This document shows, piece after piece, positions 13,790 through 62,117 of a stretch of DNA of 64,000 nt. Each line of letters opens with the position of its first letter. Position 1 is the stretch's first letter. The position numbers and the translations under genes are program-made. The notes under the pieces are model-generated. The model saw nothing but the letters and a program-made list of their open reading frames with translations, searched no databases and was not told where the DNA came from. Source of the stretch: Candidatus Heimdallarchaeota archaeon (GTDB lineage Archaea > Asgardarchaeota > Heimdallarchaeia > Heimdallarchaeales > Heimdallarchaeaceae); the NCBI GenBank assembly GCA_030603365.1, contig JAUVXV010000003.1, forward strand, positions 1-64,000, written 5' to 3'.

Positions 13790-15568
13790 ATGAGCACTCA
13801 AGACAACAACCTTTTCCAACCATGTTCTCCCAATGACTTCTATGGTTTGAGAGAAATTCTTAGTGAGTTTAACAAAGTTGTTGAACAAATGAAGAAAGAA
13901 GATGGAAGAACCCATTCAATCCTGGTTGTAGGGAATGAAGGAACAGGGAAAAGCTCTTTGTTAACTAAACTTCATTCAACACTAATAGGAAGAAAGGATC
14001 TCGGTCATTCAATAACTTTAATCCCAGAAGAGAAAATGCTTTTGGAATTTTTTAAGGAATGGAAAAATGCAATTGATGAAATGTCTCCAGACTGGCGTTC
14101 AATATTAGAGAAAGTTGGGAAAAAGCAACTAGGTGATGATTTACCAGCTTTAAAAGAGAAAATCAAGAAACAAAGTTCACAATCTTACACTGAAGTGTGG
14201 GTAAAGTTGTTTTTTGAGAGTCTTGATAAAGTTGATCAAAAACTAAAAGAAACCCAAACAAATCTATATTTCTTCTTTGACAACCTACATCTATTCAAAC
14301 TCATGGATATTCAAGAGTTCTACCCTATCTTTTCAACAATAATTAAGGAAATAGTAGAAAGAAATTATAACATAGTCGTAGTATCGGCCTTCAATGAACG
14401 CTATTTATACGACTTTGATTACGAGAAGAATCTAACAGATAACTCAACTATACTAAGAACAGAAGCTCTATCTGTATCAGAATCTGAAATCTTCTTAAGA
14501 AGAAAAGCACCAGCACTTCTGAACAAAGGGCTCTTAGAACTTGTCACTAATAGTCAAAGATCTTTCTTTGATCTAAATGTAGGAACAAGTTTCATTGAGT
14601 CTGGTTACGGAATTGATGATTTTGTTGAAAGGAATATCCCTGATTTATTCAAACTAGAAGAAGATGAAGAAGCAACCCTTTTAGAAATGTCTTCCTATAA
14701 TGAAAACCTCTTTCTAATTGAACAGTTGACAGCTTATGTCCCACATGAGGCGCTGAAATCGCTTGAAGCCAAAGGTATACTTTGGCTAGGTTCAACACAT
14801 GCAAGATTATATCAAGAATCCTTGCTTACAGCTATGAAATTCAGAATGAGATTATTTAGTCCCTTAACAACTCTAATGGTTTCATTAGATTCAATTTTGG
14901 AAGACTTGGATAAGTTCATTGCTCCCACTGACAGAATAATAGCTCAAGTATCAGATTTAACAACAAAGATACGAGATAGACTTGCAGATTTCGCAATAGC
15001 TGCAAAAATAAAAAGAGTAGCTAATCTGTGTATTCAAAGAAAAATGTTTCAACGAGCTTATGATTTTGCACTAATTAATGCTCAGCAATTTGAACAAATA
15101 AACGAGTTAGAACAAGCGGGAGGGTTTTGTGAGCAGATAGCAAGAGAATTTGAAGAGAAAAACTATTATTTTGCAGCGAAATTATATCTAAAATCTGCTT
15201 CTTATTACAGCGATGTAAAGGAAGATTTGAAAGCTAATAGATCATATGCAAGAGCTGCAGATCAATTTGAAAAACAAGCTATGTCACTCCCAATAGAAAC
15301 CAGTGAGTATGCCATTAGAGGTTACATGAAATCAAGTTTAAACTGCTATAAGAACATGGGAGACAAAAATAATTTTGAAAGAGTCAGAACAAAAGCGATA
15401 GAAATGTATGAGAAAGAAAGCATACATCATAATTACTTTACCAATATGGTATATGTAGAAGAAAAGGAAGAAATAATGGTTCCAGAAGTAGAAATTCCAA
15501 AAGAAGAAGAAGCTGAAAAAGTAGATGAAATTTCTATTGAGAATATCGAAAAGGAGTTAGATTTTTAG
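13790..15568 (+). CDS. STAND/AAA-like P-loop NTPase with C-terminal TPR/alpha-SNAP-like repeats
   Basis: DFYGLRE, Walker A GNEGTGKS, Walker B FFFDN, EALSVSESEIFL, a wHTH-like segment, helical repeats (AAKLYLKSASYY..., RSYARAADQF) and an acidic tail. Confidence 0.72.
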   Translation: MSTQDNNLFQPCSPNDFYGLREILSEFNKVVEQMKKEDGRTHSILVVGNEGTGKSSLLTKLHSTLIGRKDLGHSITLIPEEKMLLEFFKEWKNAIDEMSPDWRSILEKVGKKQLGDDLPALKEKIKKQSSQSYTEVWVKLFFESLDKVDQKLKETQTNLYFFFDNLHLFKLMDIQEFYPIFSTIIKEIVERNYNIVVVSAFNERYLYDFDYEKNLTDNSTILRTEALSVSESEIFLRRKAPALLNKGLLELVTNSQRSFFDLNVGTSFIESGYGIDDFVERNIPDLFKLEEDEEATLLEMSSYNENLFLIEQLTAYVPHEALKSLEAKGILWLGSTHARLYQESLLTAMKFRMRLFSPLTTLMVSLDSILEDLDKFIAPTDRIIAQVSDLTTKIRDRLADFAIAAKIKRVANLCIQRKMFQRAYDFALINAQQFEQINELEQAGGFCEQIAREFEEKNYYFAAKLYLKSASYYSDVKEDLKANRSYARAADQFEKQAMSLPIETSEYAIRGYMKSSLNCYKNMGDKNNFERVRTKAIEMYEKESIHHNYFTNMVYVEEKEEIMVPEVEIPKEEEAEKVDEISIENIEKELDF

Positions 15569-57946: not shown

Positions 57947-58828
57947 CTAGCATTCAAAAGTTAGAATATCTCCTACTTTGAATGGCTTAACGATGTTTTC
58001 TCCGAAGTATTCTGTCATGAATTTGATCGCTTTTTTACCTGTACAATGACTGAGGTATAGGAGCGGTTTATTGTATTTTTGTTCAAGTTGCTTAGCAACA
58101 TATTCAAGATCTTTTTCTTCAGTTAGAGCAACTAAATGAGTTCCACCAATTATCATCTTAATTTCTCTACCAGGATGAATCTCTTTAGCTCTTGCGCATA
58201 TGTTGAGAACTCCTGCATGACCACAACCTAAGATTAACACCATTCCATCTTTAGTCTTTAGTACAAGTGAAAGATCATCTAGAAGTTCATCCTTGACATA
58301 CTTTCTATCAAGTTTGATTGTCAGTTTGTCTATTTTACTGTGTTTTTCTTTCCATTCATTGATTTCTCCAATAGTGGTGAAAATGGGTGTAATCTCATAA
58401 GGTTCTATTATTTCAGTAAATTCTAGTTTTGACATTATTTCCTCAGAGAGTTTGGGAAAACCTAAATTGCTCCATCGATATTTTAGATATGCTAATATCC
58501 TGAGAATGGGTTGCTTTATTCTTCGTTTTTTAAAAGCATGAGGATGAGCTATTAAGTTCAAAACAGGTGCATCTCCTCTAGCGTACATGAGGGCTTCAAT
58601 ACCGAAAGTATGATCCCAATGACCATGACTAAAAACGACCATGTCAATGGTTTTAGGGTCAATATTGAGTATGTTCATGTTGTTAAGAAGTATAATGCCT
58701 TGATCTCCAGTATCAAACAAGATTGTCTTATTCTCAATTTTAATTAGATAGCATAAACCATCAGATGGAATCAAATCTCTATCGGGTTGAACTTCTTTAT
58801 CTACAATATTTGTTAGCTTGACTTGCAT
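57947..58828 (-). CDS. Metallo-beta-lactamase-fold hydrolase
   Basis: LFDTG, SHGHWDH, GCGHAG, GGTHL, HCTG. Confidence 0.9.
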   Translation of the reverse strand: MQVKLTNIVDKEVQPDRDLIPSDGLCYLIKIENKTILFDTGDQGIILLNNMNILNIDPKTIDMVVFSHGHWDHTFGIEALMYARGDAPVLNLIAHPHAFKKRRIKQPILRILAYLKYRWSNLGFPKLSEEIMSKLEFTEIIEPYEITPIFTTIGEINEWKEKHSKIDKLTIKLDRKYVKDELLDDLSLVLKTKDGMVLILGCGHAGVLNICARAKEIHPGREIKMIIGGTHLVALTEEKDLEYVAKQLEQKYNKPLLYLSHCTGKKAIKFMTEYFGENIVKPFKVGDILTFEC

Positions 58829-58977
58829 TGCTGGTCAAATTATACTTTTTTACATCTTCTTAATTTTAACTATAAAACACTATTATTTTTCATCCAAGTT
58901 TTATTGTAAAAGAGTGTAGGAAAACTATATAAGACGAACTAGAGATAGTGTACAATCGCTTTAGGAAGCTGAAAAAA

Positions 58978-59823
58978 ATGAAAAAAATAACTCTGAACTC
59001 TATTTTAGTAATAACGAGTTTAATACTCCTAGGATTAATTAGTGGAAACCTAGTCCAAGGTTTGACAACCATTCCCAATACTGCAGGACCAAATAAACTT
59101 CCAAGAAATCAAGCCGAAACATTAGATTTATGGTTGATACAAGACACGAAAGCTATAGTTAATGAAGACACAGAAATGACCTTTGGTGTTCGAAGTCATG
59201 TTGCCGGTGCAATAGATGTTACACTAAGATTATATGATAATGATCCTCCCTCGGTTGAAATCTACCAAGAAACCATTGGTATGATGGAACTTGCAGAATA
59301 TGAATTCACTTATTATTACAACTTTACCTCTACAGGACAACATCCAATAGTCTTTACTGCAGAGGTGGATGGAGGTGGTGAAAATTGGTTGGAGTACTAT
59401 TATTGGGATGTCTATGAAGATGGATTTTTTGTTCTAACGATTGCTCAAGATACAACTACTTATATTGGAGTTGAGAATAGAATGTACTTCAATGTAACCA
59501 ACTATTATAAAATCGGTAAGAACCTAACTCTTCAAGTTGAAATCTATAATGGAACCTATTCAATAATAATCTATGACAATTGGATACCTTTGGATATCTC
59601 CCAAATTTATAGCTTTGATGCATCATACACATTCGATGATACGGGAAATTACGTTGTGTTGTTCAACGTCACTGAAACGGATGCAGATAACCCGTCATGG
59701 TTAGAATACTGTATGTGGGATGTAATTCCTGTAGTATCTGAATTCTATGGATTTTACATACTTCCCTTATTAATATTCATGATTATACCTACCATGTACA
59801 TACGCAAACGTAAGAAACAATAA
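58978..59823 (+). CDS. Surface protein with two tandem Ig-like domains and a C-terminal sorting-type tail
   Basis: Signal peptide MKKITLNSILV; internal duplication (WLEYYYWDV / WLEYCMWDV); VSEF-TM-RKRKKQ tail. Confidence 0.72.
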   Translation: MKKITLNSILVITSLILLGLISGNLVQGLTTIPNTAGPNKLPRNQAETLDLWLIQDTKAIVNEDTEMTFGVRSHVAGAIDVTLRLYDNDPPSVEIYQETIGMMELAEYEFTYYYNFTSTGQHPIVFTAEVDGGGENWLEYYYWDVYEDGFFVLTIAQDTTTYIGVENRMYFNVTNYYKIGKNLTLQVEIYNGTYSIIIYDNWIPLDISQIYSFDASYTFDDTGNYVVLFNVTETDADNPSWLEYCMWDVIPVVSEFYGFYILPLLIFMIIPTMYIRKRKKQ

Positions 59824-59884
59824 TCAATCTAAACCCACTAATTCCTTTTTTTATTATTTATCATACTTCTTTCCACTCTTTGTC

Positions 59885-59954
59885 TATTTTTGTCCCGAGA
59901 CAAAAATATTTTTAAATGATTAGGTGAATCATTTATTGTCTCGAGACGAAAATA
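59885..59954. promoter_or_regulatory. Pair of palindromic operator/centromere-like sites flanking a TATA-like box and a third inverted repeat
   Basis: TATTTTTGTC-CCGA-GACAAAAATA (59885-59908); TTTTTAAA (59909-59916); TAAATGATT-N5-AATCATTTA (59913-59935); TTGTCTCGAGACGAAAATA (59936-59954). Confidence 0.7.
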
Positions 59955-59965
59955 AGGTGATTGAA

Positions 59966-60835
59966 ATGAATGATAAAGAAAAAAAAGGACCAGGACGACC
60001 CAAAAAATATGCTACAGACGCTGAACGAAAAAAGGCCTATCGTGAGCGCAAGAAGGAAGAACGACAACAATGGGAAAAATCACGAGTTAAACGAATAGTC
60101 GAATTACAAGAAAGAGTTGATAGAATGGAAAAAACTATTGAGACATCAACATACGAAAAAGAAAAAAATAAAGATACTCATGAGCATTTTGTATACCTTG
60201 AGATAAAAGAACAAATCAAAGTTCGTTCAGCTAAATATACTCCATGCGAATTAGCTGAAATGCCACTTGAAGATCTCTTAAGGATTCAAAATACTCTGAA
60301 TTCTAGATATTATGGAAGCTATTATAATCCAATACAAGCAGCATTGGAAACAGCTGTCATGCCCTCAGTTGACCGAGAATTTGATTCACGTAAATCTGAA
60401 CTTGGATTAAAAACTCCTGAAGCGAAGCTAGCAAAGAAGTTAGCTAAAACTAAGGATAGAGCAACTCCCAAGACAGATCAAAAAATCGAGGAATATATAC
60501 AAAAACTCAAAGAAGAAGGTGTTGAATTAACATCTGAAGATGAGCTAGCAATTCGTTCAACAATGGAAAAAAGATCTGATGAAACTAGTAGACCATGGCG
60601 TGCTATAAAATCCCCTTATAGGACAGATCAGTTTATTGATGTTTTTCAAGAATTGATGTTACTCTCCAATGTTCAAGCTGAAATATCTAGTAGAGAACGA
60701 GAATCAAAGCTTGATTCAAGTATTGAAAAACTTGAAAAAAGATTAGAGGATTTGGAAAAAACCATGTCAGATGAGAAAGAGAAATCTGTCAGAGAAAGTT
60801 ATGCTAGACGGAAGGAGAAGAAAGATGGCAGCTGA
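59966..60835 (+). CDS. AT-hook/basic-helix coiled-coil protein, putative DNA-binding partner of actin
   Basis: AGGTGA RBS at 59955 then ATG59966; KKGPGRPKKYATDAERKKAYRERKK; N- and C-terminal heptads; overlaps the actin start by 11 nt. Confidence 0.75.
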   Translation: MNDKEKKGPGRPKKYATDAERKKAYRERKKEERQQWEKSRVKRIVELQERVDRMEKTIETSTYEKEKNKDTHEHFVYLEIKEQIKVRSAKYTPCELAEMPLEDLLRIQNTLNSRYYGSYYNPIQAALETAVMPSVDREFDSRKSELGLKTPEAKLAKKLAKTKDRATPKTDQKIEEYIQKLKEEGVELTSEDELAIRSTMEKRSDETSRPWRAIKSPYRTDQFIDVFQELMLLSNVQAEISSRERESKLDSSIEKLEKRLEDLEKTMSDEKEKSVRESYARRKEKKDGS

Positions 60836-61964
60836 ATCACTCCAGACTAAACCTCTTGTTGTAGATAATGGAACTGGATTTACAAAAAACGGATTTGCAG
60901 GAGAAGATCAACCAAGAAGTGTTTTTCCAACAATTATAGGTTATCCTAAGCAACCGGTTGTAATGCCTGATGTTGAAGGATGGATAAGAGAACACTACAT
61001 TGGTGAAGAAGCAATGAATATGAGAGGTGTTCTCAAGCTAGTTTACCCCATGGAACACGGGCAAGTTAAGGACTGGCAAGCAATGGAAAACATTTGGCAT
61101 TACACGTTCTACAATGATCTAAGAGTTAATCCAAATGAACATCCTATAATGTTAACTGAACCCCCTTTGAATGATAATCGAAACAAGGAAAAGATGGCTG
61201 AGTTAATGTTTGAAATTTTCAATGTTCCAGCTATATATATCTCAATGCAAGCTATACTTTCACTCTATGCATCTGGAAGAACAACTGGACTTGTTGTAGA
61301 TGCAGGAGATGGAGTTATTCATATAGTTCCGGTCTATGAAGGTTTTGCGATATCCCATGCTATACACAGATGCGACATTGGAGGACGAGACATTACTCAT
61401 TATCTGCGAACTTTACTTAAACAACGAGGCTATTCACTGACAACTAGTGCAGAACGAGAGATTGTACGAGATATCAAAGAAAGATTATGTTACATTGCAT
61501 TAGATCCTGAAAAAGAATTAAGATTATCTGAAAGAGTCTCTGGAATGGAAAAGGATTATGTTATGCCTGATGGTGAAAATATAACAATAGGATCAGAACG
61601 ATTTATAGCACCAGAGTTGCTATTCAACCCTGGTGTAATTGGATCAGAAGAAGAACCTTTGGATGAGATAATTTACCGAATGGTACAGAATTGTGATGTT
61701 GATCTACGCAGAGATCTTTTTTCAAATATAGTGCTCTCTGGTGGAACAACAATGTTTCCAGGATTAAAGGAACGGCTACATAAAGAACTAGTTGAACTCG
61801 TTCCAGAAACAACTGAGGTAAAAATAATCTCACCTCCAGAGAGAAGATATTCCGTTTGGATTGGTGGAAGTATTTTAAGCTCTTTGAAAACATTCAATAA
61901 ATTATGGGTTACAAAAAAGGAATATAAAGAAACAGGACCTACAGCAGTTTATCGCTGTATTTAG
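60825..61964 (+). CDS. Actin (Asgard Lokiactin-like, 379 aa)
   Basis: LVVDNGTG, GFAGEDQPRSVFP, YPMEHG, IWHYTFYNDLRV, LTEPPLN, QAILSLYASGRTTG, DAGDG, TTSAEREIVRDIKE, LSGGTTMFPG, PPERRYSVWIGGSIL. AAGGAG RBS at 60812 supports ATG60825. Confidence 0.97.
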   Translation: MAAESLQTKPLVVDNGTGFTKNGFAGEDQPRSVFPTIIGYPKQPVVMPDVEGWIREHYIGEEAMNMRGVLKLVYPMEHGQVKDWQAMENIWHYTFYNDLRVNPNEHPIMLTEPPLNDNRNKEKMAELMFEIFNVPAIYISMQAILSLYASGRTTGLVVDAGDGVIHIVPVYEGFAISHAIHRCDIGGRDITHYLRTLLKQRGYSLTTSAEREIVRDIKERLCYIALDPEKELRLSERVSGMEKDYVMPDGENITIGSERFIAPELLFNPGVIGSEEEPLDEIIYRMVQNCDVDLRRDLFSNIVLSGGTTMFPGLKERLHKELVELVPETTEVKIISPPERRYSVWIGGSILSSLKTFNKLWVTKKEYKETGPTAVYRCI

Positions 61965-62117
61965 ACAGTTTATTCCTTTAAACGCCCACTTTTTTATTTT
62001 TTTAGAAGATTCCTCTTCTTTCTGAAATTATTTGTTCTTCATGGGATTCAAGAGAATTTTTGTTTCCGAAGAGCAAAAGTTATATTTCAATACTTTTACT
62101 ACTAATTTAGTGATAAT

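Follow-up and report, generated by a model that had tools for sequence, protein, structure and literature searches.

A conserved, genome-unique operator pair and its probable role in the autoregulation of a new bZIP-like factor in Heimdallarchaeia

Introduction

To our knowledge, hardly any experiments have addressed how Asgard archaea regulate their genes. The locus described here, from a Candidatus Heimdallarchaeota archaeon, raises a specific question of this kind: what reads a pair of similar palindromes that bracket the TATA box of a two-gene unit ending in an actin gene, and what would their occupancy control? The window that we analysed is the whole stretch of 64,000 nucleotides that begins contig JAUVXV010000003.1, which belongs to a genome assembly (G000) of 3.65 Mb in 17 contigs with 33% G+C and 89% completeness. 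The original prediction, made from the letters of this window, saw in the palindromes two dimer-binding sites that would give autorepression and possibly a parC-like nucleation site.

Operators placed in this manner are well known from other archaea. Gene-specific regulators such as MDR1, Phr, LrpA, NrpR, TrmB/TrmBL1 and SurR have operators that overlap the BRE/TATA region or the start site, and Ss-LrpB is autoregulated and has palindromic boxes. Such a geometry is standard for blocking the recruitment of TBP/TFB or of RNA polymerase, or for position-dependent activation or repression. Partition loci also regulate themselves via a cis site, as is the case for R1 parC-ParM-ParR and AlfA/AlfB-parN (type II plasmid partition) and for the archaeal SegAB and AspA-ParBA systems.

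Two palindromic boxes frame a TATA box

The unit begins with a gene that we call X (59966..60835, + strand; 289 aa), whose product is the putative box-binding autoregulator proposed below. It is followed by an actin paralogue ('actin-2'; 60825..61964, + strand; 379 aa; Pfam Actin, 5.8e-130), which begins inside X, with 11 nt shared between the two genes. The unit had been described in advance as an actin operon; its actin is a paralogue and not the organism's main actin. X is likely to have its own promoter, since the gene upstream of it (58948-59823) is followed by an oligo-T tract (59843..59860, + strand) that is a likely archaeal terminator. Another oligo-T tract (61990..62003, + strand), 26 nt past the actin stop codon, likely marks the operon end. 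The upstream gene is itself a 291-aa ORF on the + strand, with no Pfam match and a hydrophobic C-terminus, and lies between a metallo-β-lactamase-fold gene (57947-58828, - strand) and X. In several relatives (G005, G008, G013, G014 and G024) no long ORF separates that β-lactamase-fold gene from X, so the 291-aa ORF looks like a lineage-specific insertion.

Box 1 (59885..59908; no strand is assigned to this or the other palindromic features) is the dyad TATTTTTGTC-CCGA-GACAAAAATA. It has the perfect 10-bp arms and the CCGA centre that had been noted as a 24-bp palindrome, and its core GTCCCGAGAC lies at 59892-59901. Its 3' A-tract fills the BRE position, directly 5' of the adjoining TATA box TTTTTAAA (59909..59916, + strand). 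Box 2 (59932..59953) reads TTTATTGTCTC/GAGACGAAAAT (TTTATTGTCTCGAGACGAAAAT) and carries the perfect core GTCTCGAGAC at 59938-59947, so the second copy expected 46 bp downstream is indeed present. The sequence shared by the two is ATTTTYGTCYC/GRGACRAAAAT, where the slash marks the centre; the two 22-nt copies lie 46 bp apart from start to start, are 86% identical and are each dyad-symmetric. The separate 9-bp inverted repeat that had been seen between them, TAAATGATT/AATCATTTA, is also found in this genome (59913..59935; arms at 59913-21 and 59927-35). A Shine-Dalgarno sequence, GGTGAT (59956..59961, + strand), precedes the X ATG by 4 nt, and RGTGAT is kept in the promoter alignment described below.

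The centre of an archaeal TATA box lies about 26 bp upstream of the transcription start, and at this canonical distance the start is predicted at about 59938-59941, within the core of box 2. Box 1 would then span about -53 to -32. The arrangement would resemble that of the archaeal regulators listed above, with putative palindromic operators at the promoter of the regulator itself, one being beside the BRE/TATA region and the other over the start, here a predicted one.

How much weight a palindrome of this size deserves was gauged from 20 first-order Markov simulations of 64 kb, which contained 0-4 inverted repeats with perfect 10-bp arms each (mean about 1.25). As one per 64 kb is the level of chance, a lone palindrome is no evidence. 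The signal that goes beyond chance is the combination of duplication, genome-wide uniqueness and conservation. Within the 64-kb window there is no further copy of the box core, as had been claimed, and the nearest approach to it is a single 1-mismatch match at 14083.

The palindromes might also act as nucleic-acid structures, as a hairpin that ends transcription of the upstream gene, as a cruciform or as an RNA hairpin in the 5'-UTR. Such a role would suit box 1, which in this genome is predicted to form an RNA hairpin of -8.4 kcal/mol (z = -5.3) and is followed by a T-run, but box 2 has no significant fold against shuffled controls (z = +0.4). Nor is pairing selected: of 35 sites, just 7 have a Watson-Crick match at the internal Y/R pair, while 18 have G-T and 10 have bases that cannot pair. 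Rfam returned only microRNA-like hairpins at 14-25 bits, against gathering scores of 82-122, and the upstream gene is often divergent in relatives, where no terminator would be needed. The hairpin, cruciform and terminator readings were discarded on these pairing statistics and on folding, and we hold a structural role of the palindromes to be barely credible.

The box pair is conserved and reserved for one promoter

Among 16 congeneric X promoters, box 1, the TATA box, box 2, the Shine-Dalgarno sequence and the ATG are the only parts that can be aligned; the 5' flanks cannot, and the upstream neighbour genes vary among relatives. The aligned consensus consists of AATTTYGTCYC/GRGACAAAAAT, 1-2 nt, TTTTTAWA, about 20 nt and ATATTGTCYC/GRGACRAAAAT. 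The two boxes keep their positions relative to the ATG (about -74 for box 1 and about -27/-28 for box 2), and their centres are 44-48 bp apart in 14 of the 16 promoters. The conserved TATA box follows the end of box 1 at 0-1 nt. Its TTTTA core is invariant in the 16 aligned sequences, and TTTTAWA begins between -53 and -58 relative to the ATG; G008 and G024, which carry insertions, are the exceptions. Thus the prediction that two dyad-symmetric sites bracket the TATA box holds for the 16 promoters and not for this genome alone, and the motif recurs upstream of the orthologues, in its place, in about 16 congeneric genomes. The 9-bp repeat in the middle had been a candidate for a third functional site, which was ruled out by its lack of conservation in the same alignment; it is lineage-specific and probably without a function of its own.

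The boxes are as exclusive as they are conserved. When this genome was scanned with a weight matrix built from the other genomes, with G000 left out, box 1 scored 33.6 bits and box 2 29.4 bits, as against 16.8 bits for the next best site in 3.65 Mb and a control maximum of 13.3. The exact box consensus occurs at the X promoter and nowhere else in the whole genome. A search of the genus, 25 genomes in all, for exact copies of GTCYCGRGACRAAA gave 31 matches, every one of them at an X promoter; among these is the promoter in G005, whose X is cut by a contig end. A control pattern gave 1 match. The frequency of the motif is therefore far above background, and it is unique in the genome and limited to X promoters in the genus. 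A wider regulon that would take in the core actin or other cytoskeletal genes was ruled out for G000, where no other site rises above control level.

Some promoters depart from the standard layout. In G024 an insertion of approximately 75 bp between the TATA box and box 2 puts the two about 100 bp apart. Box 2 is retained nonetheless, which a model of pure start-site occlusion does not predict. In G014 the boxes are degenerate although X is intact. The promoter of G010 (L010) has an extra copy of box 1 and TATA box 119 bp further upstream, and that of G008 (L012) a short tandem duplication beside box 2; together with that of G024 (L011), these are the rearranged X promoters.

Gene X belongs to a predicted helical protein family of Heimdallarchaeia

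In the X protein, from the N-terminus onward, a GPGRPKK hook is succeeded by a basic helix (AERKKAYRERKK) and coiled coil, and these by a small helical domain; a disordered linker then leads into a long helix at the C-terminus. AlphaFold2 models residues 1-17, which include the GRP hook, as disordered, residues 18-65 as one continuous helix, and the C-terminal helix at a length of 68 residues; in the model of a short paralogue, a continuous helix spans residues 17-54 with pLDDT values of 92-96. No Pfam family matches X at or above its cut-off, and a weak match to DUF2115 (17.9 bits), recurring in 3 of 26 orthologues, was dropped. A Foldseek search of the X model against the PDB gave nothing at E ≤ 0.001, a wide VIA-align search had a best Z of 6.7, which is inside the range of helical noise, so that no fold was assigned, and the best ESM Atlas score (0.76) was uninformative.

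Of the 24 other genomes in the genus, 17 have an X gene, with identities of 50-81%, and an 18th copy, the one in G005, is cut by the contig end. The N-terminal GRP(K/R)KY..(D/N)AERKKAYRERKK is nearly invariant among them despite an overall identity of 50%. The close X family numbers 56 proteins, every one of them unannotated and from a Heimdall-group assembly, and among 300 genomes of the phylum the family is restricted to three families of the class Heimdallarchaeia; one member carries the label Hodarchaeales. A profile search of 1.84 billion proteins returned just 75 matches. These include proteins of 180-200 aa that share the N- and C-terminal modules of X, and scattered proteins that have the N-terminal module alone or in tandem. 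To judge from this sampling, the X family is confined to Heimdallarchaeia. Three unrelated, unannotated metagenomic proteins (P0130, P0091 and P0117) carry the N-terminal module (GRPR.Y....A.R..A.RER.) singly or in two to three tandem copies, and lack the coiled coil. The occurrence of the module alone or in tandem in proteins that have no coiled coil suggests that it is a self-contained DNA-binding motif. We found no description of the family or of the box element in the literature on Asgard or Heimdall actin operons, Asgard bZIP proteins or Asgard promoters.

The archaeal regulators with comparable operators belong to winged-helix, HTH or RHH families that are common to archaea and bacteria. 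X has no such domain; it is instead predicted to be an all-helical protein with a basic helix and coiled coil, and it is found in Heimdallarchaeia only.

Family members appear to read their own promoters

Evidence on what reads the boxes comes from the promoters of other family members as well. From the X boxes we derived the general pattern YGT-N6-ACR, usually flanked by A/T-rich arms (TTTTGT...ACAAAA), and counted its 12-nt core alone upstream of 20 family genes other than X. The 4.26 kb of these promoters hold 28 occurrences, or 6.6 per kb, as compared with 0.36 per kb in the genome. At least two boxes are present in 5 of the 9 non-X subfamilies, as against 0.4% of 2628 control upstream regions; relatives are not independent, and the subfamily count is therefore the fair one. 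The short paralogues of about 200 aa (L063, L070, L072 and L074-L082; that of G000 is L063, at 115880-116482 on the - strand of contig 7) have a TGT-N6-ACA box pair of their own, for example TGTAATATTACA and TGTATAAATACA. At most short-paralogue loci the next gene is a large, co-oriented gene with TPR repeats, which makes a recurring cassette of boxes, family gene and TPR gene.

In each subfamily examined, one box adjoins the TATA box. This box sits where a BRE would be, and its A-rich arm comes to within 1-3 nt of the TATA box. A basal factor, such as a specialised TFB or TBP paralogue, might then be what reads the boxes, as an extension of the core promoter. Box 2 of X, however, lies downstream of the TATA box, the cores differ between paralogous promoters of a single genome (X and X2 in G000), and the motif is found at one promoter per genome, unlike a basal element. 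We consider this reading highly improbable.

The centres of the boxes are specific to each subfamily and track the basic helix. Members with Arg at the position of the bZIP arginine (AY-R-ERKK) have CpG-centred boxes (34 boxes), and members with Tyr or His have A/T-centred ones (CpG in 1 of about 33); this co-variation comes from few independent lineages and possibly from one Arg/Tyr split. In a sister genus, g10, an X-like gene with 40% identity and an altered basic helix (..QKAYRYRKK) is preceded by two boxes with a different core, GTAACGTTAC, which flank the TATA box. The box counts, their places beside TATA boxes and the co-variation would make little sense if the members of the family did not each read their own promoter, and it is from this family-wide comparison that we infer autoregulation by X. 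Conservation and uniqueness by themselves prove only that some factor reads the boxes, and that factor could in principle be a different sequence-specific regulator encoded at an unlinked locus, with X having a role elsewhere, for instance a structural or actin-related one. Yet there is a single target per genome, in about 18 genomes, and it is always the X promoter, for which X itself is the simplest reader; a regulator from elsewhere also fails to explain paralogue-specific box variants that track each basic helix. We regard it as unlikely that such a regulator is responsible.

It is more probable, in our judgement, that the boxes are private operators of the X and actin promoter, putatively bound by a dimer of X in the manner of a bZIP protein. 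According to this proposal, the basic helix, continuous with the coiled coil, would read each GTCYC half-site across the central CpG, and the N-terminal GRP hook would lie in the flanking A/T tract. Both half-sites read GTCYC, in keeping with a symmetric dimer to which both pyrimidines are acceptable. With box 1 adjoining BRE/TATA and box 2 over the predicted start, occupancy of the boxes would set the expression of the X-actin operon itself. Box 2 is at a position over the predicted start that would be repressive, and box 1 could either repress, by occluding TFB, or help to recruit TFB/TBP.

Resemblance to bZIP and AT-hook proteins

The architecture put forward for X resembles that of eukaryotic bZIP factors (Pap1/Yap1/HapX; PDB 7aw7, 1gd2), in which, as in the X model, a basic helix runs into a coiled coil. 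X itself has no Pfam bZIP match at E ≤ 0.1, nor do its residues 1-70 have one even at E ≤ 10, and only 2 of 26 X orthologues match, at E ≥ 0.039. In the short paralogues, bZIP_1 (11 of 22) and bZIP_2 (8 of 22) are the commonest Pfam matches at E ≤ 0.1, and they always begin at about position 18 of the profile. None of them exceeds 22.1 bits, where the cut-off is 27.6, and all matches of the family (Pfam PF00170 / PF07716) are sub-threshold, a kind of match that basic-plus-coiled-coil proteins tend to draw. When the family profile was run against the PDB, the best match was 7aw7_D, a bZIP of the Yap/HapX type (E = 0.0064). The zipper is in register there, as are the Asn and A(Y/F)RER (N-x7-R), and further down the list come Pap1 and GCN4. 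Among the 75 matches from the search of 1.84 billion proteins, none of the 18 that were inspected resembles a bZIP factor.

Residue by residue, the family sequence N-A-E-R-K-K-A-Y-R-E-R-K-K aligns with the bZIP signature NRAAQRAFRERR, N-x7-R and zipper being in register. The likeness extends to the putative targets, which are CpG-centred dyads as in CRE-type sites, and loss of the Arg is accompanied by loss of the CpG centre. X differs from bZIP proteins in its Pfam scores, which are below the cut-off, and in having Arg-Lys in place of Ala-Ala and, in this genome, Asp at the Asn of the signature. It also has an AT-hook-like GRP before the helix and an extra helical domain and a second long helix after it, and the boxes of the family, at 18-22 bp with A/T-tract arms, are unlike bZIP sites. 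As for the hook, two short paralogues score above the Pfam AT-hook cut-off (PF02178; 19.0 and 17.8 against 17.4 bits), 3 of 26 X orthologues have sub-threshold matches, and X contains GPGRPKK, a GRP core with basic residues. X is therefore described here as bZIP-like with an added AT-hook-like motif and not filed as a member of the bZIP family, whose profile threshold it does not reach. One attractive possibility is that X and its paralogues of about 190 aa are genuine prokaryotic relatives of eukaryotic bZIP proteins, found in Heimdallarchaeia only, in which N-x7-R reads CpG-centred dyads. We put this forward tentatively and regard it as doubtful.

The linked actin is an optional partner

G000 has three actin-family genes. 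The core actin (L058; contig 1, 309232-310362, - strand) is present in every genome of the genus with a mean identity of 99.2% (97.3-100%) across species. This near-invariance, in species whose X proteins are just 50-80% identical, amounts to extreme constraint. The second actin is present in 10 of 25 genus genomes and forms a clade apart from the core actin with support of 100/100; its members are 88% identical to each other and 84% to the core actin. In all 10 genomes that have it, the second actin lies directly behind X. Some copies show the 11-nt overlap; the others follow a spacer of 25-60 nt that carries AAAGGAGG and lacks a TATA box, and they apparently start at TTG. In the group B linked actins (L019-L026) the apparent TTG start is 6-8 nt past AAAGGAGG, and their frames contain no in-frame ATG ahead of the PLV(I/L)DNGTG motif. 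By these comparisons, the linked actin is a fast-evolving, optional duplicate and not the main actin.

X and its boxes also occur with no linked actin, in at least five genomes (G013, G014, G022, G024 and G002). In g10, the X-like gene is followed by a mini-ORF (L094, G043:C35:54300-58300; L095, G180:C36:15000-19200) in which the first ~20 actin codons run straight into the last ~20. It is what remains of an actin gene after internal deletion, and the G043 copy is frameshifted too. Together, the data on the linked actin indicate that the link between X and actin-2 is old, that the actin is dispensable and that X and its boxes are the stable part.

These observations bear on the parC-like nucleation site of the original prediction. 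In a segregation cassette of the ParMRC kind, the boxes would be a parC-like centromere, X a ParR-like adaptor and the actin the motor filament, with autoregulation as a by-product. The locus shares with partition loci a cis site in the promoter of an operon for a DNA-binding protein and a filament-forming NTPase: the order is cis site, gene for a predicted DNA-binding coiled-coil protein and filament-forming ATPase, translational coupling is suggested by the overlap here and by the spacer with a strong Shine-Dalgarno sequence and no TATA box elsewhere, and the accessory actin is found behind X only. The differences are more telling. The actin is of the eukaryotic type and not a ParM or Alp, and the putative binder is all-helical in the AlphaFold2 model, with no ribbon-helix-helix and no match to a ParR family. 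There are two palindromes and not an array, with no further copy in the window or in the genome, and the locus is chromosomal, with 253 kb between it and the closest orc1/cdc6 gene of its contig. In at least five genomes X and its boxes have been kept where the linked actin is absent, and in g10 they stand beside a remnant. The short paralogues share the promoter design, and their partners are TPR proteins and not filament proteins. The idea of a nucleation site thus finds little in the locus to sustain it, and we consider a segregation cassette very unlikely.

X may nevertheless have a relation to actin that goes beyond its promoter. Since the optional actin paralogue occurs nowhere but behind X, X might also sense or tether actin as a second layer of its function, an unsupported idea that we hold to be less likely than a kinship with bZIP proteins. 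A complex prediction for X and the linked actin scored 0.01 and gives no verdict either way.

Discussion

The X promoter carries a conserved operator pair that is unique in its genome. Most likely, a new bZIP-like factor specific to Heimdallarchaeia regulates itself through this pair and would also drive the accessory actin. Our comparisons speak against the tempting view of the locus as an actin-driven segregation system of the ParMRC kind and point to X and its boxes as the stable core of the locus. What they leave is a small, complete and testable circuit, in which a defined promoter, two operators, a candidate factor and a cytoskeletal output gene are all in hand.

The bZIP-like architecture, the helix signature and the CpG dyads bear on whether DNA recognition of the bZIP type predates eukaryotes. 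So far as we are aware, bZIP factors are usually regarded as a eukaryotic invention. If the tentative kinship of X and its short paralogues with eukaryotic bZIP proteins is true, the bZIP would be another eukaryotic signature protein derived from Asgard archaea, and one whose cognate sites have already been identified.
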